Origin: an uncultured Gammaproteobacteria bacterium
Lineage (GTDB): Bacteria > Patescibacteriota > Microgenomatia > Levybacterales > UBA12049
Direction: 5' to 3'
DNA length: 64,000 bases
NCBI GenBank assembly: GCA_964537895.1
Contig: CAZIDK010000001.1
Coordinates: forward strand, 134,198-198,197
The translations under genes and the position numbers were made by a program. Positions 15,842 through 64,000 of the stretch are shown here, piece after piece. Numbering within the stretch: position 1 is the first letter of the stretch; every line of letters begins with the position of its first letter. The notes under the pieces are model-generated. The model was not told where the DNA came from, made no database searches, and worked only from the letters and a program-made list of their open reading frames with translations.

Positions 15842-17716
15842 GTGGTATCATTATACGGTATGAGGCAAGATTTTCTCAAGGACTTGAATAAGGAACAGCT
15901 CCAGGCAGTGCTTCAAAAAAATGGTCCGATGATAATATTAGCCGGAGCAGGTAGCGGCAAAACAAGGGTTTTAACCTATAAAGTTATCTATTTAATTTCA
16001 GAAGGGATAAGTCCTTTCAACATTCTCATGGTAACTTTTACTAATAAAGCCAGTAAAGAAATGAAAGAAAGAATGCAAAAGTTTTTTAAAAAAGGTGACA
16101 AACAGGTTTCCGAACTTCCGTCAATATCTACTTTTCATGCGCTTTGTGCAAAAATATTAAGAATTGAAGGTAAATACATTGGGATCCCAAATAATTTCTT
16201 AATATACGATAGTCAAGATCAAAAAGACACAATAAAAGAAGCCTTTAATCTTTTAGGGCTATCTCTAAAAGAGTACAAACCTTCATCTATTCTTGCAACC
16301 ATATCTCAAGCAAAAAACGAATTAATTGATGAAACACAATATCCGTCTTTTGCCAGAGGGCATTTTCAAGAAGTAGTTTCCAGAGTTTATGTAATTTATC
16401 AAAAAATCTTAAAGGAAAATGCTGCTTTGGATTTTGATGATTTAATTTTAAAAACAGTTGAGTTATTTAGAAAAAACCCGGATGTTTTGGAAAAATATCA
16501 AAATAAATTTAAGTATATTTTTGTAGATGAATATCAGGACACAAATCACGCACAATACCTGCTTACGAAACTGCTTAGCCGGAAATGGAACAATATTTGC
16601 GTCGTCGGCGATTTTTCTCAAAGCATATATAGTTTTAGAGGCGCAGATTTTTTAAACCTTGCAAAGTTTAAAGAGGATTTTAAAGATACAAAAACTTTTT
16701 CTCTTTCACAAAATTATAGATCAACTCAAAGAATTCTTGACGGGGCTTCTTCTGTTATATCTAAAAATAACGGTCATCCTGTTTTACAACTTTGGACCGA
16801 AAACAAAGCCGGAGAAGATATTTCAATTTTTGAAGCGTTAAATGAACAGCGTGAAGCGGAATTTACCTTAGAAGAAATGGAAAAAATTAAATATCAGAAT
16901 CCGAGTTTAAGATATTATGATTTCGCAATTCTTTACAGGACAAACGCGCAATCGAGGGCAATTGAGGAAGTTTTTATTCATAGCGGAATTCCATACATCC
17001 TAATCGGCGGAACAAGATTTTACGAAAGAAAAGAAGTCAAAGATGTGCTTTCTTATTTAAGAGTTATTGCAAATCCCAAAGACAAAATTTCTTTAAAAAG
17101 ATTAGAAAAATTAGGCAAAGGAAAATTTGTTAAATTCCTGGATTTTCAAAAAACTTTAGATGAAAAAAATATAAGTAGTGATACGACAATTTCTATTATG
17201 GATAGTGCTTTAAAAGCAACAGATTATCTTTCTTTATACAACGCAAAAGACGGGGAAGATTTGGGAAGACTTGAAAATATCAAGGAGCTTCGTTCTGTTG
17301 CAATCTCCTATCCTAATCTTGGAGAGTTTTTAGAAAATGTATCTTTGGTTGAACAAGAATATATACCCGATCACATAAAAGACGAAAACGGCAAGAAAGA
17401 TGCAATAAATTTAATGACTTTGCATGCGGCTAAAGGTTTGGAGTTTCCTGTTGTTTTTATGGTAGGAATGGAAGAGGGACTTTTTCCGCATAGCAGGAGC
17501 ATGATGGATAAAAATGAACTTGAAGAAGAAAGAAGACTCTGTTATGTTGGGATGACAAGAGCTAAAGAAAAACTCTTTTTAACCTATTCAAGAAAAAGGC
17601 TTTTCTTCGGACAAAAAACGACAAATATTGTGTCTAGATTTATACTGGAACTTCCGGAAGGAGTGTTGGAGAAAAGCTTAAATCGGATACGGATTGACGT
17701 TCCTGAATATTTATGA
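15842..17716 (+). CDS. UvrD/PcrA-family ATP-dependent DNA helicase
   Basis: GAGSGKTRVLT Walker A, FVDEYQDTN Walker B, helicase motifs through the Q-rich and VGMTRAK motif VI regions. The likely start is Met-7 (15860). Confidence 0.9.
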   Translation: MVSLYGMRQDFLKDLNKEQLQAVLQKNGPMIILAGAGSGKTRVLTYKVIYLISEGISPFNILMVTFTNKASKEMKERMQKFFKKGDKQVSELPSISTFHALCAKILRIEGKYIGIPNNFLIYDSQDQKDTIKEAFNLLGLSLKEYKPSSILATISQAKNELIDETQYPSFARGHFQEVVSRVYVIYQKILKENAALDFDDLILKTVELFRKNPDVLEKYQNKFKYIFVDEYQDTNHAQYLLTKLLSRKWNNICVVGDFSQSIYSFRGADFLNLAKFKEDFKDTKTFSLSQNYRSTQRILDGASSVISKNNGHPVLQLWTENKAGEDISIFEALNEQREAEFTLEEMEKIKYQNPSLRYYDFAILYRTNAQSRAIEEVFIHSGIPYILIGGTRFYERKEVKDVLSYLRVIANPKDKISLKRLEKLGKGKFVKFLDFQKTLDEKNISSDTTISIMDSALKATDYLSLYNAKDGEDLGRLENIKELRSVAISYPNLGEFLENVSLVEQEYIPDHIKDENGKKDAINLMTLHAAKGLEFPVVFMVGMEEGLFPHSRSMMDKNELEEERRLCYVGMTRAKEKLFLTYSRKRLFFGQKTTNIVSRFILELPEGVLEKSLNRIRIDVPEYL

Positions 17717-26124: not shown

Positions 26125-26254
26125 ATCATAATTATATCAGAAGAATAATTGAGGCTAAAACCGAACCCGCCTAAAGACTCTAGCTTTACTTGATATTTAA
26201 TGGTAAAATCAACTACATTCCGCCGCAGTCAAACGCGGCTGGGAAGTTAGACAT

Positions 26255-26510
26255 TCCGCGGTAGCTCAACGGTAGAGCAGGAAACTGTAAAATAATGCAG
26301 CCCTCAATGGAAATGTTGAGGAGAAAAACTGGGCTAATTCGGGGAAACCCCTAGGGGCAATCCCGAGCTAAATCTCGCAAGAGTAAATGTGTAGAGACTA
26401 TATACCCAGGACCTAACTCGCAAGATATGGTCAAGAGATAGTCCACGCTTCGATGAAAGTCGGGGATAAGTGTAATTTCAAGGTTCTAGGTTCGAATCCT
26501 AGCCGCGGAG
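26255..26510 (+). tRNA. tRNA gene interrupted in the anticodon loop by a probable group I intron of about 184 nt; anticodon UGU (Thr) or GUA (Tyr) depending on intron boundary
   Basis: A 7-bp acceptor stem pairs tccgcgg (26255-61) with ccgcgga (26503-09). There is a D arm gctc/gagc. The T arm is ctagg-TTCGAAT-cctag (26486-26502). Between the 5' anticodon-stem half (ggaaa|ct, ends in U at 26286) and the 3' exon lies about 184 nt ending in G (26470). The insert carries group-I-like elements (...gactata..., aagatatggtc...gatagtcc). There is no encoded CCA. Confidence 0.6.
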
Positions 26511-26514
26511 CAGA

Positions 26515-27597
26515 TTAGCCGAGGTAGTCTTTAAGTTTATTGCCGCGGGATGGATGCCTTAATTTCCTCAAGGATTTTGCTTCGATTTGTCTTATTCTTT
26601 CTCTTGTTACCGCAAACATTTTTCCAACCTCTTCCAGCGTTTTTGGCCGTCCGTCTTTTAAGCCAAATCTTTCTTCCAAAACTCTTTTTTCTCTGTCAGA
26701 AAGAGTTGATAAGACCTGTTCTACCTGCTCTTTTAAAAGTTCCCTACTTGCCGTGTCAAAAAGAGTCGGAGCCGCAGTATCGTGAATAAAATCACCTAAG
26801 CGCGAATCTTCTTCGTCTCCAACAGGCGATTCTAAACTTGCCGGCTCCTGGGAAATTTTAATTATCTCCAACGCTTTTTCAGGGTCAATATCCAAAGCTT
26901 TGGCAACTTCTTCAGGCGTTGGCTCTCTTCCTAACTCCTGCATCAATTTTCTTGATGCTCTTAGAAATCTATTGATATTTTCAACCATATGAACAGGAAT
27001 CCTGATGGTCCTTGCCTGGTCAGCAATGGCGCGTGTTATGGATTGCCTAATCCACCAAGTCGCATAAGTTGAAAACTTATAACCCCTTCTCCAATCGTAT
27101 TTTTCAACTGCTCTTATTAAACCCTGATTTCCCTCCTGGATTAAATCTAAAAGCGTTAACCCACGACCGACATATTTTTTAGCAATAGACACAACTAATC
27201 TTAAATTTGAATTTACAAGAATTTTCTTTGCTTCGTGGTCTGCTTTTTCAACTCTTTTTGCCAAAGAGATTTCTTGGTCAAAGGTTAAAAGAGGAATTCT
27301 GCCGATTTCTTTAAGATACATTCTTACCGGGTCGGAGACTGTGCCTTCAGTTAAAACAGTTAATGCTTCCAGTTCTTTTTCCAAATCTTCTATCGGCTTC
27401 TCATTGCTCTGATCGGCTGCAACGGACTCAAAAACATCAATATCCGAATGCATTAATTTATCGTAAAGCTGATCAAGCTCAACAATGTGCTCTTCCGGAT
27501 GGGGAAAAATAGATAAAATTTCGTCTTGGGTGATATACCCGCGTTTTTTAGCAGACATAACGATATCTAATAAAATATTTGGCTGTTTTTGTTTCAT
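26515..27597 (-). CDS. rpoD: RNA polymerase primary sigma factor (sigma-70, RpoD)
   Basis: Region 2.x is [29 protein letters not shown]. The region 4 HTH is ...[30 protein letters not shown]. It lies downstream of dnaG. Confidence 0.93.
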
Positions 27598-40574: not shown

Positions 40575-40640
40575 TTAGCTACTAGCCATTAGCCTCTAGC
40601 ATCTAGCCATTAGTTAACTAGTTGCTAGTTGCTCGTTGCT
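40575..40640. repeat. CTAG-rich intergenic repeat with ttgctag/ttgctcg heptad tandem (ruvB-ruvA spacer)
   Basis: gctaCTAGccattagcctCTAGcatCTAGccattagttaaCTAGttgCTAGttgctcgttgCTAGttgctcg. It shares the 25-nt core tagccattagttaactagttgctag with 41232..41290. Confidence 0.7.
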
Positions 40641-41226
40641 AGTTGCTCGTTGCTCGTCCTAACGCTTTCAGTGCCAGTTTTATTTTTTCATCCAATGTTA
40701 GTCCTTGGGTTTTTATTTCCCTAACAGTTTTTTGCGCTTCCCCTACCGAAAATCCGAAATTTTTAAGCGCCTGGACAACTTCGGCATTTTCCAGCAAGTC
40801 CTTGCCTGATAAATCCAAATCTGTGCCCGCTCCCATTTTATTTTTAAGCTCAATTATAATTTTCTGGGCATTTTTTGTGCCTAAGCGCGGAACAGAAGTA
40901 AAAAACGATACGTCTCCTTTAATTATTGCCTCGATTATGTCTTTTCTCTCTCCAAACGAGAAAATATTTAAAGCGGTTTTAGGCCCAATCCCCGAAACCG
41001 TGATTAGTCCTTCAAAAAGTTTTAAGTCTTCAATTTCCAAAAAACCAAAAAGAGCAAGTTCGTCCTCGCGAACATAGGTATAGGTAAAAAGTTTAATTTT
41101 GTCTGCTTTTGAGAGTTTTGAATAAACACTGTCGGAAACTAAAACTTTGTAGCCGACTCCGTTAACATCAACATAAATAAAGGGTCTGTCCAGAAGTTCA
41201 ATGCTGCCTTTGAGGAATCCTATCAT
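40639..41226 (-). CDS. ruvA: Holliday junction DNA helicase RuvA
   Basis: MIGFLKGSIELLDRPFIYVDVNGVGYKV is the OB fold. Tandem HhH motifs (GIGPKTA) and the C-terminal domain III are present. Confidence 0.92.
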   Translation of the reverse strand: MIGFLKGSIELLDRPFIYVDVNGVGYKVLVSDSVYSKLSKADKIKLFTYTYVREDELALFGFLEIEDLKLFEGLITVSGIGPKTALNIFSFGERKDIIEAIIKGDVSFFTSVPRLGTKNAQKIIIELKNKMGAGTDLDLSGKDLLENAEVVQALKNFGFSVGEAQKTVREIKTQGLTLDEKIKLALKALGRATSN

Positions 41227-41231
41227 AGTTT

Positions 41232-41290
41232 TAGTAATTAGCCCTTAGCCTCTAGCCATTAGTTAACTAGTTGCTAGCGGCTAGTTGCTA
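41232..41290. repeat. CTAG-rich intergenic repeat, second copy upstream of ruvA
   Basis: taattagcccttagcctCTAGccattagttaaCTAGttgCTAGcggCTAGttgCTAGttaCTAGc. It is followed at 41330..41370 by a tandem heptamer (atttaag)x5. Confidence 0.7.
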
Positions 41291-41585
41291 GTTACTAGCA
41301 TTAAAAGGATTATAACACAAGCTATAGTAGGACTTTAGATTTAAGATTTAAGATTTAAGATTTAAGAATAAAGAGCGGTCTCTTTTAGTTTGCAATCCAA
41401 CAAAGAACGTTAAGTTTTTGCGATTGAGCGAATCAGGGGAATTCCTCAGATCGCGAAGCGAGATTGAGGAAGGGGTGAAATTACCCGATGAGCGAAAGAG
41501 TAAAAATAGTTCGGCTTGGCTTGCAAAAAGTTTTTGGGCGTCTTTTCCGAAAAAGACGCAAAGAGCGATTGCTTTCACAAAAAAT

Positions 41586-45859: not shown

Positions 45860-47161
45860 TTAAACCTCTATTAGTTTATAGCCTCTTGTTTTTATTGTTT
45901 GTATTTCGTAGTTATTGTCCTGGTTTTTTAATTTATTCCGCACCCTTGCAATAAGCTTATCTATCGCCCAATCCGATACACCCAACTCTTCTTCCTCCGG
46001 CCAAATTATTTCGATAATCTGTTCCCTTTCGCAAATCTTATCTTTATTTTCCAAAAGAAAGTTAAACAATAAATTTTCTTTTTTACTGAATTCATTATTT
46101 GCATCTTTCGAGCTTATATTTGTTTCTTTTTGTCTGACAAAATCCGCAAAAAGTTTACTGAAAACATAATTATTTGCGCCTATTGTTTTTATAAACCCGG
46201 TATTCCAAAGATATATTGATTTTCTTTTTTCTTCCGTCAAAATTTTCTCACTATTTGCTATTTTTAACAGTATTTTTTGGGCATTTTTGTCCAAACTTTC
46301 CCAGAGCTCTTCCGACTGAAGGTTAATTCTTTCATCTTTACTAAGGCCTAGGTAAAGTTTTTCTTTTGTTCTTATCGCTTCTTTTTTTTCGTGAAGAAAA
46401 ATAAGCGCCAGCTGAAGATATTGCGTATAACCATCAACCAATTCAAATAAATAATCTTCGAGATATTCAGAAAGAGGAACTCCAAAACGTTTTTTATAAC
46501 TTGTGAATATTGTTTTTACATCTTCTGTTTTTGCAGGGCTAATATAAATGTTTTTAAAAAATACCGTCCAAGAAGTCTTTGGAAAAGCCGAAGGCATAAG
46601 TTTTTTTAAAGGCTGGTAGCTGGTAAAAACAAAAGCAACTTGCTGGTTAGTTGACTTAATCCCTTCTAAATTTGCGAAAAACTCCGGAGTTACCGCGTCT
46701 TTCATTCGGTCAAACCTGACAAAAAAAATGGTTGGTAAATATCCTTGTTCCGTAATCTTTAGAAGCGAAAGACGAACGCTGTCTATTGTAAAAAATAAAT
46801 CCTGAAGCTGAATGCTTTCTAAAAATAAATTTCCGATTTGCTCTTTAATTTTTTCGTCAATTGGGTACTCCTCTACCGAATCTACAATTCTTTTTAAAGT
46901 TAGTGTCCAGAATGGTGCGATTTCGCACTCAACTAAATCATTAAGCTCTATGGGAATGAATAAATGTCTCCTGTAATCCTTTATGTAGGTTCCCGGGATG
47001 TCTTTATTGTTTAAAAAAAAGCGGAGGAAATTACTTATTCCCACCTTTTTCATTCCTATCAAAACAACTGCGTGTCTGTTTTTCAAGTGCTTGCCGAGTT
47101 CTTCCGACTCGTCTTGCCTAAAAGTTAAAGGATAATTTTCTTCTATTATGTTATGCGTCAT
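45860..47161 (-). CDS. regulator-like protein: N-terminal ATPase-like domain (degenerate P-loop) fused to C-terminal OmpR/PhoB-type winged-helix DNA-binding domain
   Basis: The C-terminus ...EREQIIEIIWPEEEELGVSDWAIDKLIARVRNKLKNQDNNYEIQTIKTRGYKLIEV matches trans_reg_C (W...D......R...D..I..LR.KL.......I.TVRG.GY.L). The N-terminus HAVVLIGMKKVGISNF is P-loop-like but lacks the Lys. Confidence 0.5.
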   Translation of the reverse strand: MTHNIIEENYPLTFRQDESEELGKHLKNRHAVVLIGMKKVGISNFLRFFLNNKDIPGTYIKDYRRHLFIPIELNDLVECEIAPFWTLTLKRIVDSVEEYPIDEKIKEQIGNLFLESIQLQDLFFTIDSVRLSLLKITEQGYLPTIFFVRFDRMKDAVTPEFFANLEGIKSTNQQVAFVFTSYQPLKKLMPSAFPKTSWTVFFKNIYISPAKTEDVKTIFTSYKKRFGVPLSEYLEDYLFELVDGYTQYLQLALIFLHEKKEAIRTKEKLYLGLSKDERINLQSEELWESLDKNAQKILLKIANSEKILTEEKRKSIYLWNTGFIKTIGANNYVFSKLFADFVRQKETNISSKDANNEFSKKENLLFNFLLENKDKICEREQIIEIIWPEEEELGVSDWAIDKLIARVRNKLKNQDNNYEIQTIKTRGYKLIEV

Positions 47162-55673: not shown

Positions 55674-56783
55674 ATGAAAGCCACTTTTCTTACAGAGAAT
55701 CTACAACGGTGTTTATTTTTTTTAAACCATGCTGTTTCCGGAAACAGCCAGTTGGAAATCTTATCGACGTTTTTAATCATCGCCGAAAAGGGACGGCTCA
55801 TAATTAACGCAACCGATTTGGAAATAGGTATATCCTCATCTGTCCCCGCAAACATAGAGGAAGAAGGAATGGCTTGTGTCCCCGCAAAAACATTTTTTGA
55901 ACTCATAAACAACGTCTCAGAAGAAAAAATATCCATAGAAACCAGGGAACAAAACCTTGTTCTAAAAGGGAAAAAAATAAAAATGGCTTTTCGGACAATG
56001 CCTTACGAAGACTTCCCTAAGCTTTATGAGGACAAAGGCGAGGAGGTTGCAGTCTTTAAAAAAGAAACAGTGCTGGATGATTTTAACAAGGTTGTTTTTG
56101 CCGCAAGTCAAGATAGCGGCAGACCAGCGCTTTCAGGCATTTTAATAAAAAAAGAAAAAGACGGCTTTTTAATAGTGGCAACGGATGGATACAGGCTTTC
56201 TTTAAAAAACAACGTTGTGATAAAAACTAAAAAAGGAGAGGGCGTGGACGAGCTTCTTCTTTCGGCAAGGGTTATAAAAGAGCTTGTTTCAATAAAGCAA
56301 AACGAAGACATCTCTCTTTTTGTTTCAGGCAAAAATAACCAAGCGATTTTTGTACAAGGCGAAACAACACTGGTCGGAAGATTAATAGAGGCAGAGTACC
56401 CAAGTTACGAAAAAATTATCCCAACCGATTTTGGAACAAAAGCGGAATTTGATAAGGACGAAATGCAAAAAGCCATAAAACTTTGTTCGGTTTTTGCAAG
56501 GGAAACGGCGAACATAGTTAAATTTTCCGTTAAAAAGGATAAAATAATTGTTTCCGCAAACACGCCTTCGGTTGGGGAGAATACGGTCGAGGTTGACGCG
56601 AAAGTAATAGGCGAGGAAAACGAAATTGCCTTTAATGCCCGCTATTTACTGGATCTTTTTTCAAACATCAATGAGGAAAACATGTCTTTCGAAATGACCG
56701 GCCCGCTAAATCCCGGGGTTTTTAAAATTACAGGCGACAACTCCTTTTTTCACTTAATAATGCCCATTAGAGTGCAGGGCTAA
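55674..56783 (+). CDS. dnaN: DNA polymerase III beta sliding clamp
   Basis: 369 aa with a three-domain clamp fold. MKATFLTENL...LEILSTFLIIAEKGRLIINATDLEIGIS is the typical N-terminus. Confidence 0.93.
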   Translation: MKATFLTENLQRCLFFLNHAVSGNSQLEILSTFLIIAEKGRLIINATDLEIGISSSVPANIEEEGMACVPAKTFFELINNVSEEKISIETREQNLVLKGKKIKMAFRTMPYEDFPKLYEDKGEEVAVFKKETVLDDFNKVVFAASQDSGRPALSGILIKKEKDGFLIVATDGYRLSLKNNVVIKTKKGEGVDELLLSARVIKELVSIKQNEDISLFVSGKNNQAIFVQGETTLVGRLIEAEYPSYEKIIPTDFGTKAEFDKDEMQKAIKLCSVFARETANIVKFSVKKDKIIVSANTPSVGENTVEVDAKVIGEENEIAFNARYLLDLFSNINEENMSFEMTGPLNPGVFKITGDNSFFHLIMPIRVQG

Positions 56784-57524
56784 TTATTTCGGAATAACCC
56801 CCCATGAGAAATCATATCCAGAGGTGCTTACCCCAATTCTTTTTAATTCCGTTAGCACCTCGTTTTTTAGTACAACAACCTGTTCGGAAATAGAGGATGG
56901 AGAGTTTTTTAATGGATATAGATCAACAAAAAACAGTCCTTTTTCTGCATCAAAACCAACAAAATACCTATCGTTTTCCGGAGGAAGGCTATCATACCAC
57001 GGATATTTTTTATAAAAAGCGTCCATCTGGGCATTTGACTCGTTATCCAGTATGCCTTGTGCTTTCAACTGATCTTCCTCTGAAACATTTTCAATTTTTG
57101 CAGTCGTAAAGCCCCATGAATATTTCTTGTTAAAATAATCCAGTCGCAAAATATAGGCTGTGTCCACCTCAAGGCCCCCCTCCAGCTTTGCATTAAGCCT
57201 AGAATTATTATTTGACCAAAAATATGAAGTTTTGACAAACGGATTAATTAAAAGAGACACGTTATTTTTTTCAGTATTATCTACTGGTCTTGAAAAATCA
57301 ACATAAACATCTGTGAATATGCCTGCGTTATTATGGTTGGGCTCCGGAAAAACATTTTTTATTTCCAAACCTTCCTTTTTAAGGATTACAGTCTCTTTTG
57401 GAACAAGATAACCCGTTCTTTTATTTGAAAAAAGAAAAAAAACAATGATGAGCAAAAAAAATAGCGCAAAACTAAGGCCCAATATTAAAACCAACTTTTT
57501 GTTATAAATAAGAAAGTTTTTCAT
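56784..57524 (-). CDS. bitopic membrane protein of the T4SS-like cluster (function unknown; VirB8-like topology)
   Basis: An N-terminal TM (LVLILGLSFALFFLLIIVFFLF) is followed by an extracytoplasmic beta-rich domain of about 210 aa. It starts 1 nt after the CHAP gene stop. Confidence 0.3.
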   Translation of the reverse strand: MKNFLIYNKKLVLILGLSFALFFLLIIVFFLFSNKRTGYLVPKETVILKKEGLEIKNVFPEPNHNNAGIFTDVYVDFSRPVDNTEKNNVSLLINPFVKTSYFWSNNNSRLNAKLEGGLEVDTAYILRLDYFNKKYSWGFTTAKIENVSEEDQLKAQGILDNESNAQMDAFYKKYPWYDSLPPENDRYFVGFDAEKGLFFVDLYPLKNSPSSISEQVVVLKNEVLTELKRIGVSTSGYDFSWGVIPK

Positions 57525-58385
57525 TTATCTTGGTCCCAACCCAAAAGCTACATTTGTTGCAGCAGGCAACCACACGTTTCCTAAAAGCTTCCATCCGCTA
57601 ACATAATGCTTAATGAGTTTCTGATTGACATTGGCATCTATAGTATACAGCACTCCATTTCCGCTTGAATTAACGCTTATTGCATCTATTAAATCTGCGT
57701 GTCTATATCTATAGCAATTGCAACTTCCGCTAAGACCATACCAAAAAACAGCATCTCCTGGTTTTACCATCCTTACATTATTTGTTTTTAATAAGGTAAG
57801 GCCCCTGATGGATCCCCATTGGCTTACCATGCTGGGGGTCCATTCACTAAGATTGTTTTTTATGCCCGCCAGGTTATAGGCGTCCTTCACAAGCCTTGTG
57901 CAGAGATAGGCTCCTCCATATCCTTGACAATCACCCCCCCTAATAGCAGCACTATATCCTGCAGTATTTCTTATAATGCTTTGTTGTCTATTGTAAATTG
58001 TGTTGCTGCAACCTAAAGCCTTAGTAAGGACGCTGTTTATTTTTCTCCCCCACACGAGAATATCTGTTCCGTCGAGTCCGCCTGGTTGCGTAGTTGGTCC
58101 GGGAGTAGAAGATTCTGTCGGAGAAGGGGAGTTGCTTAGGTCGCCGCCGACAACAGTGCTCGGGGCGGCTCCGGAGAACATAATAATAACAACAACAAGT
58201 ATGACAACGCCAATCCCTACCCCTACGGCTGGTCCGGCCAATGCGCCCAATCCTTCTCCTGCAAGCCATGCCGCCCTCGCTTTTTTGTAAGCACCATAGG
58301 CTCTTTGCAGATTTCTTCCTTTGCCGGCAAGGCTGTTAATTCTGCCCACAGCAGATGAATCTTTTTTTTCGTTTTCTTCGGCCAT
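57525..58385 (-). CDS. membrane-anchored CHAP-domain peptidoglycan hydrolase (T4SS-associated lytic enzyme candidate)
   Basis: Cytoplasmic N-terminus, a TM (GIGVVILVVVIIMF), and a Ser/Pro/Thr linker. The CHAP catalytic Cys is in GGDCQGYGGAYLCTRLV, and the His in PGDAVFWYG...YRHADLI. Confidence 0.6.
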   Translation of the reverse strand: MAEENEKKDSSAVGRINSLAGKGRNLQRAYGAYKKARAAWLAGEGLGALAGPAVGVGIGVVILVVVIIMFSGAAPSTVVGGDLSNSPSPTESSTPGPTTQPGGLDGTDILVWGRKINSVLTKALGCSNTIYNRQQSIIRNTAGYSAAIRGGDCQGYGGAYLCTRLVKDAYNLAGIKNNLSEWTPSMVSQWGSIRGLTLLKTNNVRMVKPGDAVFWYGLSGSCNCYRYRHADLIDAISVNSSGNGVLYTIDANVNQKLIKHYVSGWKLLGNVWLPAATNVAFGLGPR

Positions 58386-58439
58386 GACTTAATAATAGCA
58401 GAAACTAATTGCTGGCAACTAAATACCAGCAACTAGTAA

Positions 58440-60383
58440 CTAGCTACTAGCGTCTAGTTTAGGAATGGGGTTTTCTGTTGGGAGGATGATAGTTGTCGCT
58501 GGCGGAGCAACCGGCTCATTGACCGGCGTCATAGGTGGTTCAACAGGGGCCTGTGTCATCAACCGCGCTCTTTCGGCTTCATCCTCCTGCATTTTAAGAA
58601 TTTCTTGCGGGTTAGATGTAATCATTGTGTGTTCAAAGGGTGCAGCTATAACTTTCATTGCAACATGGCTTTGTCCTGCAAAAAACAACCCTTCGCCGAT
58701 ATCCGCCGATAGCAAAAGTTCTTTCTCTCCCTGCGAGAGATAAAAGGTTTGCGAAACCAAGTCTACTTCGGACGGGCTTTGTTTTAAAAGCATTTGTATC
58801 GAAGAGTTTGATAAAATGGCTTTGCCATAGTCGGTGGACAGGAAATCCTGCACGTCTTGGGTTGCCGTTGTTAGCGCAAGATAATATTTGCGTGACCTTT
58901 TGGCAATGCTATAAACAAAAGAAGCAGAATCGGGATATTTCATAATATACCAGGCCTCATCAAGAATAAGAAGGCGCTTTTTAAGTGTTTTTCTAATCCT
59001 TGTCCAAACAAAATCTAAAACAATGTGCATGGCAACCGGCCTTAGCTCTTCCTCAAGCGCCTTGATATTAAAAACCGTTAGCAAATTCTTAAGATCAAAA
59101 TTGGATTGCTGGTTAAATATTCCGCTTAAGCTTCCTTTAATGAATTTCTCAAGTCTTAACGCCAGCTCTCTGGCGGCCGGGTCTTCCATGCCGAGCAATA
59201 CCTTGTATAAATCTTCCATTAAAGGAGGCTGTTTCTTTTGCGTTGTGGGATCGGCAGTTATGCCTTTTTGCCGGTATGTTTCGACCAGTGCCCTGTCTAA
59301 AATTGCATCGTGAGCGGCATCCAAATCGCCCATAATAATTCTTAAAAGTCCGTGTAAAGAAAGAATTTTAAGACCAAGCTCATTTTCGCCTTCTTCGTAA
59401 AGCCCGGACATGTCAAAAGGGTTTATCCTGACCGGATCAGACGCGGTAAAGGAAACATGCTCGCCTCCCAGAGTTTTTGCCAGGGTTTCATATTCTCCTT
59501 CCGGGTCGATAATGATAACTTCCGTTCCAAACATAAACTGCCTTATTGCTTCAAGTTTAATTAAATAAGATTTTCCCGCTCCGGATTTGCCCAAAACCAC
59601 TTCGTTGGCGTTTTCTAAGGAGAATCTGTCGAAAATAATTAAAGAACCGTTTTGCTCGTTAATTCCGTACATTACGCCTTTATCTTGCGCCAGCATTGCC
59701 GAAGTAAACGGAAAAGTTGAAGCAAGGGATGTTGTGTCCATGTTCCTAGTTATAAAAAGCCTGTCTTGTCCCAAGGGAATGCTGGATTTAAATCCGTCTT
59801 CCATTTGCAGGGTTGCGGTTTTTGAGAGCATAAGTATTGAGCCAAGCGTTGTGCTTAGTCTTTTCGAGGCTTCGTCTAAGTCTTTAACGTTTTCGGCAGA
59901 AAGCGTTATGTAGAGACTGTATTGAAAAAACCTTTCAACGCCTTTTGCCAGCTCTTCCTGAACGGATAAAGCGTCATCTAAAGATGCTTTTACCTTAGGG
60001 TCAATCAGCTGTCCTTCCTCAACTTGGGATGAAATCGTTGCTTCCATTTCGGCAATTTTTCTGCGCAAATCCGACAAAACATCGGGAGATGAGGTTGGAT
60101 AGATAAACATAGAAATATTCATAGAGTGGTCAAAGTCAATTATGGGCTGAAGCCAGTTTGCCGATACGTAGCGCGGATAGCCAACGACGAAAACTGTTTT
60201 ATAAAACTTTTCCCCTACTCTTATAAAATGAAAATCAACTTCAACAGAAGACGGCGCAATAATATCCGTTAAGGAAACCATTCCTTTTTCAAGTTTGGCA
60301 ATACTTGGCGAAACAGTCTGCTGCTGCTTTGCTGGCAGCTGTGTTTGGCTGACTTGGGTTTTGTTTTTTTTGAAAAGATTCAT
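58440..60383 (-). CDS. VirB4/TrbE/CagE-family type IV secretion ATPase (C-terminal ATPase part)
   Basis: Walker A GKSGAGKS, Walker B RLLILDEAWY, and a FYLSQGE/ATQ sensor region are present. 647 aa is short for VirB4. The N-domain appears to be encoded by the overlapping upstream ORF. Confidence 0.75.
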   Translation of the reverse strand: MNLFKKNKTQVSQTQLPAKQQQTVSPSIAKLEKGMVSLTDIIAPSSVEVDFHFIRVGEKFYKTVFVVGYPRYVSANWLQPIIDFDHSMNISMFIYPTSSPDVLSDLRRKIAEMEATISSQVEEGQLIDPKVKASLDDALSVQEELAKGVERFFQYSLYITLSAENVKDLDEASKRLSTTLGSILMLSKTATLQMEDGFKSSIPLGQDRLFITRNMDTTSLASTFPFTSAMLAQDKGVMYGINEQNGSLIIFDRFSLENANEVVLGKSGAGKSYLIKLEAIRQFMFGTEVIIIDPEGEYETLAKTLGGEHVSFTASDPVRINPFDMSGLYEEGENELGLKILSLHGLLRIIMGDLDAAHDAILDRALVETYRQKGITADPTTQKKQPPLMEDLYKVLLGMEDPAARELALRLEKFIKGSLSGIFNQQSNFDLKNLLTVFNIKALEEELRPVAMHIVLDFVWTRIRKTLKKRLLILDEAWYIMKYPDSASFVYSIAKRSRKYYLALTTATQDVQDFLSTDYGKAILSNSSIQMLLKQSPSEVDLVSQTFYLSQGEKELLLSADIGEGLFFAGQSHVAMKVIAAPFEHTMITSNPQEILKMQEDEAERARLMTQAPVEPPMTPVNEPVAPPATTIILPTENPIPKLDASS

Positions 60384-61051
60384 TTTGCCCCCTCGTTTTT
60401 AACTATCGGTGATTTTATGTTGTCTGTTGCCTGGCCTGTTTCAATTAAGGTATCGTTGTATATTTCATAAAATAATTTAATTAACTCTTCTTTTTCCAGA
60501 GTTCTGGCTCGCAAATTAAGTCTTCCGAGCTGGGAGTGCAGGGACTCTGCTTTTGAATGAAGAGCGGATTTAGCGTTTTGGACAAAAGCGAAATCATCCA
60601 CCGAGCTTTTCTTCTTAACACTGCCCGCCGCAGCGCCGATGCCCTTTTCAAGGTAGGAAAAAGGAACAGCAATATAGAATTTTTTATCCAAAACGGTATT
60701 TACCTTAATTAATTCCTGAATAAAATCTTTGTAAAGCTTTATCTGCTCCGCAAGCATCTGATTTTGTGTTTTTCCTGCTTCAGTATCAAGAAGCTTAAGA
60801 TAGGAGGTTATGTCCAGCTTTTTACTTCTGATAAGAATTTGAATCGGGAAGGAGAGGGAGTTAAGAAGGGCGGCGTAAGAGAAAATTTTTGAATCCTGTT
60901 CTTCTGCGGACAAAAGCGCAAAGTTTGTAGCGGTTACTTCAATAACCAAGCAGGCGTTACCATTGGTTAAAACAACAACGTCATCGATAACGTCCTGTAT
61001 TTCTGTGAATTTCTGCGTTGTTGCGTTGATTTTTCGGGCAGAACTTTTCAT
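60380..61051 (-). CDS. VirB4 N-terminal-domain-like protein (apparent split or frameshifted virB4 5' part)
   Basis: 223 aa, overlapping the ATPase ORF by ATGA. IQDVIDDVVVLTNGNACLVIEVTATNFALLSAEEQDSKIFSYAALLNSLSFPIQILIRSKKLD resembles the N-terminal region of Gram-positive-type VirB4 proteins (I.D.i.....g.....l.i.piNF.L.s.eEq...i..f...L.sl..piQi.....k.d). Confidence 0.45.
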   Translation of the reverse strand: MKSSARKINATTQKFTEIQDVIDDVVVLTNGNACLVIEVTATNFALLSAEEQDSKIFSYAALLNSLSFPIQILIRSKKLDITSYLKLLDTEAGKTQNQMLAEQIKLYKDFIQELIKVNTVLDKKFYIAVPFSYLEKGIGAAAGSVKKKSSVDDFAFVQNAKSALHSKAESLHSQLGRLNLRARTLEKEELIKLFYEIYNDTLIETGQATDNIKSPIVKNEGAK

Positions 61052-61168
61052 AAATAATTATTAATTTTCAATTTCTAATTTCTATTGGATTTTCAAGCTT
61101 CCAATCTTTGATTGCATCATTTTCATATCAAAAATAAAATTTTAAATATAAAATACACATAGCAAAAA

Positions 61169-61540
61169 TTAAATATTATTCCCTTTTCCTTTTAAAGTCG
61201 GGATACTTGAACCGAATATTTTGGAAATTTCATCAAGTTCTGCCAAAATTGAATTTGCTTCATCCTTTTCACCATTATCTGTATCCCGCAATATTGAAAC
61301 CCACACCTTGCTTTCATTTGCCGACTTTAAGCTATGGTGAAAATAGTTTGTGTAATCCTTCTTTGAACTTGCAGACTGCCCTTCTATATAGTTTCCCAAA
61401 ATACTCGTCCCGCTTCTTATTAATTGGTCTCCAATAATCTTTGTTGTTTGAGATTTTTTGCAATTCTCAACAAATTTAATAATCCTTAAGATAAGACCGT
61501 ATAAACGTTTTTTAAATTCTCTTTCCCTATCGTTTTTCAT
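61169..61540 (-). CDS. four-helix-bundle protein (PF05635 / 23S rRNA intervening-sequence protein family)
   Basis: GDQLIRSGTSILGNYIEGQSASSKKDYTNYFHHSLKSANESKVW matches the family core (QL.RSA.SI..NIAEG......D...F...A.GS..E...). Confidence 0.7.
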   Translation of the reverse strand: MKNDREREFKKRLYGLILRIIKFVENCKKSQTTKIIGDQLIRSGTSILGNYIEGQSASSKKDYTNYFHHSLKSANESKVWVSILRDTDNGEKDEANSILAELDEISKIFGSSIPTLKGKGNNI

Positions 61541-61584
61541 ATTTGATATGTATTTTTAATATTTTATATTTAATCTTTTAAATG

Positions 61585-62805
61585 CTAGCTAAACAGACTT
61601 CTCCTTAACTCTTCTCTTGTGTCAACGGAGAGCACTTCTATCGGCAGTATTATTTGTCCGGTTACGCTAAATTGAATAACATCAAACTTGTTTTCTCCCT
61701 TAGTGTCCTCAAATTCTATAGTGTAAGTACCGTTATTTAGCGGCGTTGCGGAGGCGAATTGTCCTAAAGGATTTGTTTTGAATGCTCGAACAGGGTTACT
61801 GTCGGCATCTTTTATTTCAACAAGAATATTTCCCAAGGGATTGCCTCGCGGGTCTTTTACAATGCCTGTAACCAGGTTTGGAAATTCGGGCGCAATTGGA
61901 AGGCCTATGCTTTTTCCTAAGCCTTGGGGAATGCTTCTTATATTTTGAGTTTCTTTTTTGGGCGCTTTGGCAATAGAGGCGGTATAAACGTTTTTGTTTT
62001 CGTTTGTAAGCTTTTTCTGAAGTTCTGCGATTTGTCCTTCAAGCACTTGTTTTTGCTTGGCAGTATCTGTTAGGAGATTTTCAAGTTCAAGTACCTTTAA
62101 GTGCGCCTGTTTATATTCTTCAGATCCCGACTGCGCTGATTCCTGCGTCTTTGCTTGCACCAACTGCTGCTGTAAAATTTGCGCCTCTTTTCGTAAAATT
62201 TCTTCCTCTTCGGAAGGCATTTCTGCTTCTTTTGCGACCGGAGCCGGTTGATTTGGCGGAGCTTGGTTAGCAAAAGCATGAGGCGTAGCGGGCTGGGGTA
62301 CTTGTAATTGCGGGGCAGGAGTGTTTGCCTGGAGACTAGCTAACGATTCGAAGAAAACCATTTCTTTTTGGTCAAGCTGGTTTTTTGATCTTTTGGGCAG
62401 TGAATTTAAATAGTCTTTTAATGCCTGTCCGGAAAGAGACGCAGTTTGGGCCGCCTGTTGGGCCCGCTGTTGTTTTTGAGATTGAGCAAGATGCGGTATA
62501 GGAAGCCAAAGGTGCCCCCCTGTCTTTTGATAAATAAACTGCGTCGGATAGAAGACGGCTTTAAAAAAATTAGAAATCATTAAATCCATAGGTCTCCCCT
62601 CAATGGGCAAAAAAGCAAAGCCGGCGCCTAAAAGAATTGATATTCCGGCAAGAGGAATCTTGACGATTGGAATTAAAGGAAGAACGAAAATAATCCAGCC
62701 TATTACCACCCCTGCCGCAAGATAGGCAAATTGTTTAATCGTCATGTCGCCAATCAGCTTAAACTGAAAACCGGTAATATCTTGAGGTATAGGGTGATTT
62801 TCCAT
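61585..62805 (-). CDS. PrgI/VirB3-like N-terminal membrane domain fused to coiled-coil and C-terminal beta-sandwich domain
   Basis: The N-terminus IPQDITGFQFKLIGDMTIKQFAYLAAGVVIGWIIFV matches the PrgI-family motif (f.G.T.RQ......a). Two TM helices are followed by a Gln/Glu-rich coiled coil (QILQQQLVQAKTQESAQ...ELQKKL). The C-terminus GIVKDPRGNPLGNILVEIKD...YTIEFED is a carboxypeptidase-regulatory-like / Ig-like beta sandwich. Confidence 0.5.
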   Translation of the reverse strand: MENHPIPQDITGFQFKLIGDMTIKQFAYLAAGVVIGWIIFVLPLIPIVKIPLAGISILLGAGFAFLPIEGRPMDLMISNFFKAVFYPTQFIYQKTGGHLWLPIPHLAQSQKQQRAQQAAQTASLSGQALKDYLNSLPKRSKNQLDQKEMVFFESLASLQANTPAPQLQVPQPATPHAFANQAPPNQPAPVAKEAEMPSEEEEILRKEAQILQQQLVQAKTQESAQSGSEEYKQAHLKVLELENLLTDTAKQKQVLEGQIAELQKKLTNENKNVYTASIAKAPKKETQNIRSIPQGLGKSIGLPIAPEFPNLVTGIVKDPRGNPLGNILVEIKDADSNPVRAFKTNPLGQFASATPLNNGTYTIEFEDTKGENKFDVIQFSVTGQIILPIEVLSVDTREELRRSLFS

Positions 62806-62838
62806 AGTTCAGTTACTAGACACTAGTTAGATTAGTTA

Positions 62839-63225
62839 CTAGTTGCTAGTGTCCTCCTTTGTTAATTTTTTCATTTTTCCTATCATAACATTTAACATTT
62901 TAGAAACTTCCAACAAGAGATTCTCGCTTGGTTTAAATAATGTCTCTTTTGCCATAATTAATTCTTTTGAAATAATAAGCTGCGTTTCAAGCTCTAGGGC
63001 AGAGCCATAGGCAAAGGAATAAAACTGAACAGATGATCTAAAAGATCTTCGGCCGAATGCCTCTGCAATGTTTGATGGAATTGATACCGCCGCTCTTCTC
63101 ATTTGAGAAGTAATGCCAAAAACTTCTGATTTAGGAAAATTTTCGGTTAAAAGAAAGATTTCTTTTACTAATTTCATTCCTTTCTGCCAAACGATGAGTT
63201 CTTTATAAGATTTAATAATTGCCAT
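62839..63225 (-). CDS. four-helix-bundle protein (PF05635 family), second copy
   Basis: YKELIVWQKGMKLVKEIFLLTENFPKSEVFGITSQMRRAAVSIPSNIAEAFGRRSFRSSVQFYSFAYGSALELETQLIISKEL is an almost canonical match to the family. Confidence 0.8.
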   Translation of the reverse strand: MAIIKSYKELIVWQKGMKLVKEIFLLTENFPKSEVFGITSQMRRAAVSIPSNIAEAFGRRSFRSSVQFYSFAYGSALELETQLIISKELIMAKETLFKPSENLLLEVSKMLNVMIGKMKKLTKEDTSN

Positions 63226-63388
63226 GGGATTTCGTAACTAGTATCTAATAACTAGTAACTGATTATACTAGCTTATAACGTGAAAAATTACGTTGCAAGA
63301 TTATCAAACTAGGTGCAAACCGCGTCAGACGCGGTCAAAGGAAAATATTAATTTCAGCCTGCCCCGTGAAAATTATCCTTCGGAGAAA

Positions 63389-63700
63389 TTATTTGCAGGT
63401 ATCAAATCCAAACGTAGTGATGCAGTCGGCCCCAGTTATTGTTCCTATTAACTTAATTATTGCAAAAGCCAAAAGAATAACGATTAGTCCCGCTACTGCA
63501 TAGGTTAAAGTTTTCCTTGCTCCCTCGACTTGTTTTGGGTCGCCGCCAGAGGTTAAGAATTTTATTCCTGCCAGTATGATGAAAAAAACAGCAACAATCC
63601 CGGCTAAACCGGCAGCCCAGTAAACAATATTACTAAAAACAGCAGGTAAGCAGCTAAGAGTTGCAACTCCATCTTGAACACAGCTTCCCCAGTCCTTCAT
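63389..63700 (-). CDS. VirB2/TrbC-like pilin candidate (small two-TM protein with paired cysteines)
   Basis: 103 aa. A TM hairpin IVAVFFIILAGIKFLTSGGDPKQVEGARKTLTYAVAGLIVILLAFAIIKLI is present. Cys pairs sit at both ends (C..C near the N-terminus, C...C at the C-terminus). It is paralogous to 63748..63999. Confidence 0.45.
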   Translation of the reverse strand: MKDWGSCVQDGVATLSCLPAVFSNIVYWAAGLAGIVAVFFIILAGIKFLTSGGDPKQVEGARKTLTYAVAGLIVILLAFAIIKLIGTITGADCITTFGFDTCK

Positions 63701-63747
63701 ATAAAGCTAGCGTAGCAAATAGGAAAAGAAAAAGTCAAGGATAAGGG

Positions 63748-63999
63748 TTATTCGCAGGTGGGGTTAGTTAAGCTAGGAATACAGAAATTACCGGATAAGG
63801 GGCTGCCGACTCCCAGAAAAGTAAAGACAACATTTATAATAAAGAAAGCTGCAACTACAATTACTAAGCCGACTATCGCAGCGACAATGTGTTTTCTGGC
63901 GGCATCAACGTTTGCTTTGTCCCCGCCGGAAATTACCCATTTAATTCCTCCGTAGATAAGGAAAATCAAGGAAATTAAAATACCGACAACTAAAAGCAA
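63748..63999 (-). CDS. VirB2/TrbC-like pilin candidate, paralogue; 5' end may lie beyond the window edge
   Basis: 83 aa as drawn. It has the same GIKWVISGGDKANVDAARKHIVAAIVGLVIVVAAFFII hairpin and a C-terminal CIPSLTNPTCE. Its first codon is at the last in-frame position of the window. Confidence 0.4.
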   Translation of the reverse strand: MLLVVGILISLIFLIYGGIKWVISGGDKANVDAARKHIVAAIVGLVIVVAAFFIINVVFTFLGVGSPLSGNFCIPSLTNPTCE

Positions 64000-64000
64000 C

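Follow-up and report, generated by a model that had tools for sequence, protein, structure and literature searches.

The minus-strand row of genes that abuts dnaN in the DNA analysed here (a 64,000-nt stretch of contig CAZIDK010000001.1, assembly GCA_964537895.1, hereafter the window) very probably encodes a core-chromosomal, origin-proximal type IV secretion system (T4SS) or pilus of Candidatus Levybacteria (Microgenomatia, Patescibacteria) that belongs to the Patescibacteria clade of such systems. In the same interpretation, the four-helix-bundle genes of family PF05635 interspersed in the row are stem-bracketed cassettes akin to intervening sequences (IVSs), and not structural parts of the machine. 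The open reading frame (ORF) listing placed dnaN at 55674-56783 on the plus strand and nine minus-strand ORFs between it and the window end, in agreement with the nine-gene block described in an original prediction made from the sequence alone. The monoderm-type T4SS-like pilus apparatus which that prediction proposed, without a local VirD4, relaxase or VirB6, was borne out, as was its expectation that the cluster would run on past position 64000. Two Logan contigs (L001 and L002), retrieved by exact-protein look-up of VirB4, were base-for-base the same as the window over the 10,001 nt compared and reached 6.4 kb past its end, and further genes of the row were seen on L001. With this extension the row consists of 14 co-oriented genes, including four of the pilin family and four of PF05635.

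For comparison we collected 80 related loci, one genome per species, with VirB4 proteins 68-94% identical, and annotated them by labelling all their ORFs with the window proteins. All credibly named records among them were Candidatus Levybacteria/Levyibacteriota, Microgenomates or Patescibacteria. Many third party annotation (TPA) records, including L003 and L006-L009, are mislabelled 'uncultured Gammaproteobacteria bacterium', an artefact of that assembly series. Two loci are referred to repeatedly: L003, a 94% relative, and L004, an 86%-identical relative free of cassettes. The order common to the loci is a gene of ~900-1150 aa on the opposite strand, a regulator, a large pilin, two to four small pilins, a PrgI fusion, TrsD and VirB4; downstream of VirB4 there are one to four variable genes and then dnaN, dnaA (opposite strand), rnpA, yidC and jag. 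The row is a fixed origin-proximal chromosomal locus and not an island.

The 647-aa product of 58440..60383 (minus strand) is a VirB4-family ATPase. It scored 392.6 bits against the NCBIfam model NF045971 ('VirB4-like conjugal transfer ATPase, CD1110 family'; cutoff 325) and passed the cutoffs of P-loop_TraG (PF19044, 90 bits) and AAA_10 (PF12846, 39.3 bits); the Walker A (GKSGAGKS) and Walker B (LLILDEAW) motifs expected of it are both present in the translation. The original prediction would have been abandoned had this ORF shown no significant VirB4 match, and the matches are significant. Its PF03135 match was not (E 0.028), and the NF045971 alignment spans model positions 162-734 of 752 only, so that the usual N-terminal domain is missing. 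The adjacent gene at 60380..61051 (minus strand), which overlaps virB4 by 4 nt at an ATGA as had been noticed, encodes a 223-aa TrsD-family protein, that is, the VirB4 N-domain as a gene of its own. It matched positions 97-279 of the Mbov_0397 VirB4 model NF045975 (E 2.7e-10) and the TrsD/TraD family NF041427 (E 9e-6), and has a precomputed TraC-like match (PF26593); the resemblance to a VirB4 N-domain was upheld and membership of an unrelated family was not found.

Upstream of trsD lies the gene for a 406-aa PrgI/VirB3-like fusion protein (61585..62805, minus strand), which matched PF12666 with 33 bits (cutoff 27). The two paralogous VirB2-like pilin candidates of the window, a 103-aa protein (63389..63700, minus strand) and a second one whose N-terminus is cut by the window end (63748..64000, minus strand), both passed the cutoff of T4SS_pilin (PF18895, 26.6 bits) with 50.2 and 28.5 bits. 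Downstream of virB4 are a candidate membrane-anchored peptidoglycan hydrolase of 286 aa (57525..58385, minus strand), a VirB1 analogue, and a 246-aa bitopic membrane protein (56784..57524, minus strand), the last gene of the row. A profile scan of large ORFs, covering 18 window ORFs of at least 400 aa and the extension (~70 kb in all), revealed no VirD4 or other type IV coupling protein (T4CP), no relaxase and no VirB6, as predicted for the window. Nor did we find a polytopic VirB6/PrgH-like protein: no protein of the row has more than three hydrophobic segments or matches Pfam VirB6. The divergently transcribed protein of ~1011 aa at the end of the extension was considered as a VirB6 and rejected, having no transmembrane (TM) segment and no family match.

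The system was already described in 2025 and is ordinary for this lineage. Quinonero-Coronel et al. (PMC12102498) reported a Patescibacteria VirB4 clade related to MPF-FATA, and found TrsD to be the most abundant component of Patescibacteria T4SSs, PrgI/VirB3 to be among the components, and VirB2-like pilins to form arrays of 2-11 divergent members, above all in Microgenomatia and Saccharimonadia. In their survey VirB6 and VirB8 were scarce in Microgenomatia, relaxases occurred in only 103 Patescibacteria genomes, and dnaA/dnaN were among the commonest T4SS neighbours in Microgenomatia and Paceibacteria. The separate TrsD, PrgI/VirB3, the pilin arrays, the missing relaxase and the dnaA/dnaN position, at first taken for unusual features, are consequently published hallmarks. 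What is new are TrsD-VirB4 fusions, hydrolase swapping and the PrgI and pilin extensions, as comparative details, and a cassette hotspot, as a modest lead.

Proposed role of the apparatus

By homology with characterised T4SSs, TrsD (N-domain) and VirB4 (motor) would form a two-polypeptide ATPase made by coupled translation, which would dock on the membrane via the PrgI/VirB3-like protein and drive the extraction and polymerisation of the VirB2-like pilins, four paralogues of which one bears a large surface domain. The membrane-anchored hydrolase, of CHAP/NlpC-P60 fold, would open the cell wall locally, and the cluster is probably under the control of the P-loop/OmpR-type regulator whose gene heads the row. 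The Patescibacteria-clade machinery would itself derive from the monoderm MPF-FATA conjugation machinery. Since no coupling protein, relaxase or VirB6 lies nearby, the machine most likely serves an epibiotic cell as an organelle for host contact or translocation and not for conjugation. Two reviews (PMC12857230, which cites Wang et al. 2023, and PMC11665869) describe the T4SS as essential for epibiotic growth of Southlakia epibionticum, and no T4SS before that of the Patescibacteria (in Saccharibacteria) had been shown to be indispensable for the growth of its owner. The Levybacteria version is pared down to TrsD and VirB4, the PrgI fusion, pilins and a hydrolase; a VirB6, VirB8 or T4CP could not be recognised nearby.

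We regard it as rather unlikely that the apparatus is primarily a competence-like device for the uptake of DNA or nutrients instead of an organelle for export or contact. The local lack of a T4CP and a relaxase would suit such a device as well, there is a precedent in Helicobacter pylori ComB, and an import of nucleotides has been proposed in the case of Saccharibacteria (PMC12857230, PMC11665869). However, the row contains no ComEC, ComF or DprA genes, unlike the loci of class ABY1 (PMC12102498), and in Southlakia comEC is dispensable whereas the T4SS is essential (PMC12857230, PMC11665869).

Four-helix-bundle cassettes

The two PF05635 genes that the original prediction saw interleaved in the cluster both score far over the family cutoffs, with 65.5 bits for the 123-aa ORF at 61169-61540 and 122.4 bits for the 128-aa ORF at 62839-63225 (PF05635, cutoff 33.8), and 80.5 and 112.4 bits against TIGR02436 (cutoff 24). 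Both are on the minus strand, the first in the type-B cassette (61127..61574) between prgI and trsD, the second in the type-A cassette (62809..63271) between a promoter-like sequence and the prgI start codon. The extension adds copies of 118 aa (beyond the gene for a 391-aa pilin) and 123 aa (beyond the regulator gene), which scored 120.7 and 77.2 bits. Within the ~70 kb the T4SS row contains all four copies, and the other 57 kb are free of them.

At least one copy was present in 25 of the 80 related loci. Forty-two copies lay upstream of virB4 whereas an equal amount of downstream DNA held none, and 41 of these 42 were co-oriented with the row. A broader hidden Markov model (HMM) placed 41 copies inside the T4SS span (591 kb) and two just outside it (729 kb of non-T4SS DNA; binomial p 1.4e-12, uncorrected for phylogeny). 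The restriction of the cassettes to the T4SS row in this lineage is real. Their recurrent slots are before the regulator, between regulator and large pilin, between large pilin and pilin, before prgI, and between prgI and trsD; the proteins form ~12 clusters at 45% identity, and a single cluster can fill several slots. L128 (metagenome contig SDBT01003089.1) has a type-A four-helix-bundle gene between trsD and virB4, parting the usually overlapping pair.

The boundaries of the type-A cassette were set by comparison with L004 and L003; it has CTAG-heptad arms and the termini CAGTTACTAG...CTAGTAACTG. The type-B cassette has AT-rich arms (61127-61168 and 61533-61574) of 42 nt that are 74% complementary, and the cassette arms measure 26-42 nt overall. 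The predicted flank duplex amounts to -28.6 kcal/mol for type-A and -18.1 kcal/mol for type-B. Across 45 cassettes its median was -18.1 kcal/mol, whereas pilin genes gave -10.7 and other small ORFs -12.9 (Mann-Whitney p ~1e-10), and z fell below -2 in 58% of the cassettes versus 5-6% of the controls. Arm sequences vary between cassettes yet remain complementary, as illustrated by the TAGG/CCTA heptads of L062 and by GCGTCTAGC/GCTAGACGC in L055. Minimum free energy and centroid folds of whole cassettes close over the ORF, with z values of -2.88 (type-A) and -2.46 (type-B).

Several comparisons bear on turnover. L004 carries no cassette, its prgI/trsD slot being empty. L003 keeps the copy before prgI, and its prgI/trsD slot holds a 94-nt ORF-less hairpin (L003 1772-1865; -22.5 kcal/mol, z -2.6) whose right arm, CTAGTATCTAGTAACTGA, is one base off the right arm of the window type-A cassette; this hairpin may be a miniature derivative or footprint of a cassette. 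The type-B cassette (L001 8800-9330) is 88% identical at the nucleotide level to L024 1690-2150, with a proportion of synonymous differences (pS) of 0.49 against ~0.8 for the flanking prgI and trsD. The lower cassette value suggests that this cassette is younger than the species split, and hints at lateral exchange into the same slot. The PF05635 ORFs are under purifying selection, with a ratio of nonsynonymous to synonymous divergence (dN/dS) of 0.06-0.07 (0.06 for type-A against L003). The cassettes would turn over among the intergenic slots of the row and be co-transcribed with it.

Relatives were also sampled from metagenomes without regard to T4SS genes. A broad alignment of 29 four-helix-bundle sequences contained no block conserved enough for a metagenome scan, and the type-A subset was used instead. 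This yielded 40 loci of at least 5 kb, 10 of which had T4SS genes in the flank and ~8 of which had the cassette within the T4SS row itself; the remainder adjoined genes for glycosyltransferases, BrxL, PilC, the succinate dehydrogenase Fe-S subunit and others. PADLOC gave no defence-system match for the four-helix-bundle genes, the regulator or the 246-aa protein.

The original prediction treated the four-helix-bundle genes as partners of the machine, a claim we do not retain for genes that are sporadic, hop between slots and also occur in unrelated operons. In its strongest form it would make the PF05635 proteins dedicated T4SS accessory factors, such as pilin chaperones or regulators, selected to sit in the operon. 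This would account for the 41 of 43 copies found inside the row, for their co-orientation and purifying selection, and for the 10 of 40 independently sampled type-A relatives near T4SS genes, which often stand directly upstream of prgI and include higher-GC lineages. We nevertheless consider it improbable: 55 of the 80 loci, including the 86%-identical L004, lack the genes, slot and copy number vary with one subfamily occupying different slots, close relatives adjoin the unrelated genes named above, and the family is best known from 23S rRNA IVSs (PMC4990558).

Our reading is instead that cassettes like rRNA IVSs would ride in operons and that the T4SS row would be their hotspot in this lineage. 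A more far-reaching version, which we put forward tentatively and think more doubtful than probable, is that the PF05635 genes are mobile stem-bracketed cassettes, 'operonic intervening sequences', that home to intergenic slots of strongly expressed operons, with the Levybacteria T4SS row as an almost exclusive niche. The closing stems would then be RNase III sites at which the polycistronic mRNA is cut between T4SS genes, the heptad arms would serve as stop signals in six frames, and ORF-less arm pairs such as the L003 hairpin would be miniature derivatives. If this were so, RNase III cutting at the closing stems would tune T4SS subunit stoichiometry. A literature search returned no paper tying PF05635 to T4SSs, and the survey PMC12102498 and two of its supplementary files are without mention of the family. 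The 'rRNA-IVS' genes appear here as selected, stem-flanked cassettes colonising one operon, and offer a handle on both family function and cassette movement.

Several points weigh against our interpretation of the row as a Patescibacteria-clade T4SS with IVS-like cassettes. Neither a VirB6- nor a VirB8-like protein was identified, which leaves the membrane channel unexplained, and the placement of VirB4 in the Patescibacteria clade is inferred from taxon and gene content. For the T4SS of Saccharibacteria, effector delivery, nutrient or DNA import and adhesion are all under discussion (PMC12857230, PMC11665869). Arm pairing at the RNA level and processing by RNase III are predictions only. The cassette enrichment statistics take no account of shared ancestry, and compact housekeeping operons, in which insertions may be lethal, make up most of the non-T4SS background.

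Chromosomal position and the separate TrsD gene

The VirB4 and pilin matches could also be read as the mark of an integrated conjugative element (ICE), or a remnant of one, lodged next to dnaN for DNA transfer: the best VirB4 family models are conjugative (CD1110 family, Mbov_0397 ICE ATPase, TraC) and the pilins resemble the Mbov_0395 ICE pilin-like protein. We judge this very improbable, as the row is found at the same chromosomal position in 80 species, its GC content resembles that of the surrounding sequence, no relaxase, T4CP or integrase was found in ~70 kb, and the published survey met relaxases in just 103 Patescibacteria genomes (PMC12102498).

TrsD is a separate ORF in 77 loci, with a median length of 219 aa. 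At the trsD/virB4 junction the two genes share 4 nt in 33 loci and 1 nt in 12, and in 17 they are 0-6 nt apart. In three loci an in-frame TrsD-VirB4 fusion forms a single ORF of 761-789 aa (L068 1659-3977, L069 9350-11719 and L079 4414-6699), with a TrsD-like N-terminus (52-57% identical). The fused ORFs are ~90 aa shorter than the two separate proteins summed and, on account of this shortfall, look like real fusions with a trimmed junction and not like 1-nt assembly errors. Such natural fusions are useful in that they show TrsD to be a detached VirB4 N-domain. The split in the window is native, and its two ORFs are evidently translationally coupled, to judge from their overlap. The opposite view, of a sequencing frameshift or pseudogenised virB4, can appeal to the ATGA overlap, to the joint coverage of a full-length VirB4 model and to the three fused relatives, and is scarcely credible given that assemblies made independently from two sequencing runs agree exactly with the window sequence, that both ORFs are kept in 77 loci with overlaps and gaps of varied length, that dN/dS against L003 is 0.16 for trsD and 0.06 for virB4, and that TrsD, as a separate gene, heads the T4SS components of Patescibacteria in abundance (PMC12102498). 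The split virB4 is therefore neither a frameshift nor, as had been supposed, an unusual feature.

PrgI fusion, pilins and cell-wall hydrolase

In nearly all loci that reach that far, trsD or the fused trsD-virB4 is directly preceded by a PrgI orthologue. In the window protein the membrane domain is joined by a Gln/Pro-rich linker to a coiled coil, and the C-terminus is a CarboxypepD_reg-like beta sandwich (PF13620, 31.6 bits, just below the cutoff of 32.3). Of the predicted PrgI/VirB3 fusion, the PrgI domain was confirmed above cutoff and the beta sandwich is a near miss; a PrgI gene as such, being a published hallmark, is not unusual.

The 103-aa pilin has two TM segments and N- and C-terminal Cys pairs, and matched the Mbov_0395 pilin-like family NF045849 (E 1e-7). 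From L001 the cut pilin, which has a C-terminal Cys pair, is encoded by a full gene of ~121 aa with its likely start at window-equivalent position 64113. Of the four PF18895 pilin genes in the row, two lie past the window end. The next gene after the start of the cut pilin encodes a 111-aa pilin, and the other (L001 4680-5855, window-equivalent ~64529-65704) a 391-aa protein in which a signal peptide is followed by a Cys-rich surface domain of ~290 aa and, at the C-terminus, by a T4SS-pilin domain. Most loci retain this protein as the first member of the pilin array; it is a candidate tip or adhesin pilin. It is hardly to be believed that these pilins are varied by a diversity-generating retroelement with the four-helix-bundle genes as its Avd subunits: the 128-aa protein belongs to the same four-helix-bundle fold family and is weakly similar to bAvd/DivGenRetAVD (24.9 bits, cutoff 40; E 0.0017), but no reverse transcriptase was found among the large window ORFs or called extension genes, and the sole long direct repeat in L001 1-14000 is the type-A four-helix-bundle gene pair, so that there is no template/variable repeat pair.

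The 286-aa protein has a TM helix at residues 53-71, a Pro/Ser/Thr linker and a C-terminal domain of CHAP/NlpC-P60 fold with Cys162 and His229. Pfam gave no match at E <=0.1, and searches of the protein and of its domain profile against PDB chain sequences returned nothing usable. A word-indexed search found 13 relatives, many of which match the N-terminal anchor alone and two of which carry a Peptidase_C39_2 C-domain; residues 100-286 as the query of an exhaustive search gave 115 remote homologues. In the homologue alignment C162 and H229 are invariant, within YWCT...PGD...H...N motifs, and Pfam CHAP was matched by 10 of 49 remote homologues of the domain. The AlphaFold model (predicted local distance difference test score, pLDDT, 91.7) gave as top Foldseek matches Gsp amidase and the CHAP domains of LysGH15 and LysK, with weak E values of ~1e-3. 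The protein accordingly shows a papain-like fold with a Cys...His dyad; the membrane-anchored CHAP hydrolase of the original prediction holds at the level of fold, superfamily and dyad, and not as membership of the Pfam CHAP (PF05257) profile.

Elsewhere (L005, L009, L019 and others) the slot after virB4 is occupied by Amidase_3 plus Glucosaminidase (1126 aa), CHAP (34 bits), SLT_3 or Peptidase_C39_2 proteins. These hydrolases of different species have a similar N-terminal membrane anchor, which points to swapping of catalytic domains; the slot is that of a VirB1 analogue with domain swapping between species, and is of comparative value.

The predicted bitopic membrane protein is confirmed in the 246-aa protein, which has an N-terminal TM helix, an Ig-like (Big_5) beta sandwich and, beyond two helices, a conserved alpha/beta domain of small size at the C-terminus (model pLDDT 78.6). 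It is lineage-specific and present in five of the 80 loci. It has no significant family match of its own, and a word-indexed homologue search returned itself alone; database relatives found with a profile of locus-derived homologues are annotated as Big_5 Ig-like. An iterative profile search among the ORFs downstream of virB4 was discarded after drifting via shared TM segments into hydrolases. Assignment as a VirB8/PrgL-like NTF2-fold protein was rejected, the domain being Ig-like.

Repeats and other features

CTAG is under-represented overall (75 observed, 143 expected). Its spacing is exactly 7 nt in 11 of 19 short spacings, and the 80 loci contain 58 spacings of 7 nt, far more than of the neighbouring values. 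One heptad element at 58425..58457 (minus strand; CTAG cluster 58433-58457), with four CTAG at 7-nt spacing and a terminator-like 12-bp hairpin, provides the last codons and stop of virB4, and CTAG clusters flank the type-A cassettes. The CTAG-rich spacer repeats noted earlier are present but not special to this cluster: ruvA (40639-41226, minus strand) is flanked on both sides by a CTAG/CTAA-heptad element (containing GCAACTAGTTAACTAATGGCTAGAGGCTAA) in direct copies of ~60 nt (40582-40642 and 41252-41298), of which one supplies the ruvA stop region and the other lies in the 5' leader downstream of a TGTTATAAT box. The repeat is on this ground genome-wide and intergenic, and not a T4SS feature. 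It can evidently be absorbed into ORFs, as a heptad stretch stands in frame within the regulator ORF (L001 3620-3665, window-equivalent ~66720-66765), where the translation includes ILAISHEQLATSSE, and likewise in five of the 80 loci. At least three heptads put TAG in every frame of both strands, as follows from the sequence; any function that the heptads may have is one we infer.

The regulator at the head of the row is a 444-aa protein with a P-loop and an OmpR-type (Trans_reg_C) domain. A 433-aa paralogue with Trans_reg_C at its C-terminus is encoded at 45860-47161 (minus strand), 10 kb off on the far side of dnaA. The promoter-like sequence upstream of prgI (63267..63309, minus strand; TTGCAA-17 nt-TAAGCT) was read by eye from aligned pilin-prgI spacers including that of L003, and is common to the window locus and the cassette-free L004. 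A consensus scan for promoters and terminators did not outperform shuffled sequence (20 vs 14.5 and 10 vs 8.5), and this sequence was not significant. A search of 56700-64000 against Rfam returned no RNA family, even with the threshold relaxed to E <=1. Farther off, a tRNA gene at 26250-26520 (plus strand) is split by a group I intron (RF00028, 67 bits, 26279-26465); its acceptor, D and T arms are readable on both sides, ARAGORN makes no call, and trial splicing gave several possible anticodons. A match to RF03531 (Clostridioides difficile small RNA 'n00280'; 71 bits, 17497-17595, plus strand) lies within a UvrD/PcrA-type helicase ORF (15842-17716) and most likely reflects conserved coding sequence, not a small RNA.

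Comparison with known systems

With the other Patescibacteria-clade T4SSs the Levybacteria row shares a VirB4 that has TrsD beside it as a gene of its own, PrgI/VirB3, an array of VirB2-like pilins that diverge from one another, a wall hydrolase gene immediately following virB4, the lack of a relaxase and the dnaA/dnaN neighbourhood. It differs in the coiled coil and beta-sandwich extension of PrgI, in one pilin with a ~290-aa N-terminal surface domain, in having no VirB6 or T4CP nearby, and in the PF05635 cassettes of its intergenic slots. The MPF-FATA conjugative T4SSs (the C. difficile conjugative transposon CTn with CD1110-type VirB4, TrsD-TrsE of pGO1/pSK41, and the Mycoplasma ICE with Mbov_0395/0397) likewise have a VirB4 of the kind whose CD1110 cutoff is passed here, a TrsD-like protein, Mbov_0395-like pilins and, in hydrolases of the Tn916-type Orf14 class, structural counterparts of the CHAP/NlpC-P60 hydrolase. 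In contrast to these, the Levybacteria row has no relaxase, coupling protein, oriT context or element boundaries, and keeps a fixed locus across 80 species.

For the cassettes, the closest parallel is found in 23S rRNA IVSs, which in Leptospira encode an S23p/PF05635 protein. In Coxiella burnetii a 428-nt 23S rRNA IVS, excised by RNase III, contains an S23p ORF that is decaying (PMC4990558). Common to both are a unit of ~430-470 nt, a PF05635 ORF inside complementary arms predicted to form a closing stem, a sporadic distribution and signs of lateral movement. The cassettes described here differ in lying between protein-coding genes of an operon, in a window with no rRNA, and in having arms of TAG/CTAG heptads or AT-rich repeats; and whereas the Coxiella ORF is decaying, the cassette ORFs are under strong purifying selection.

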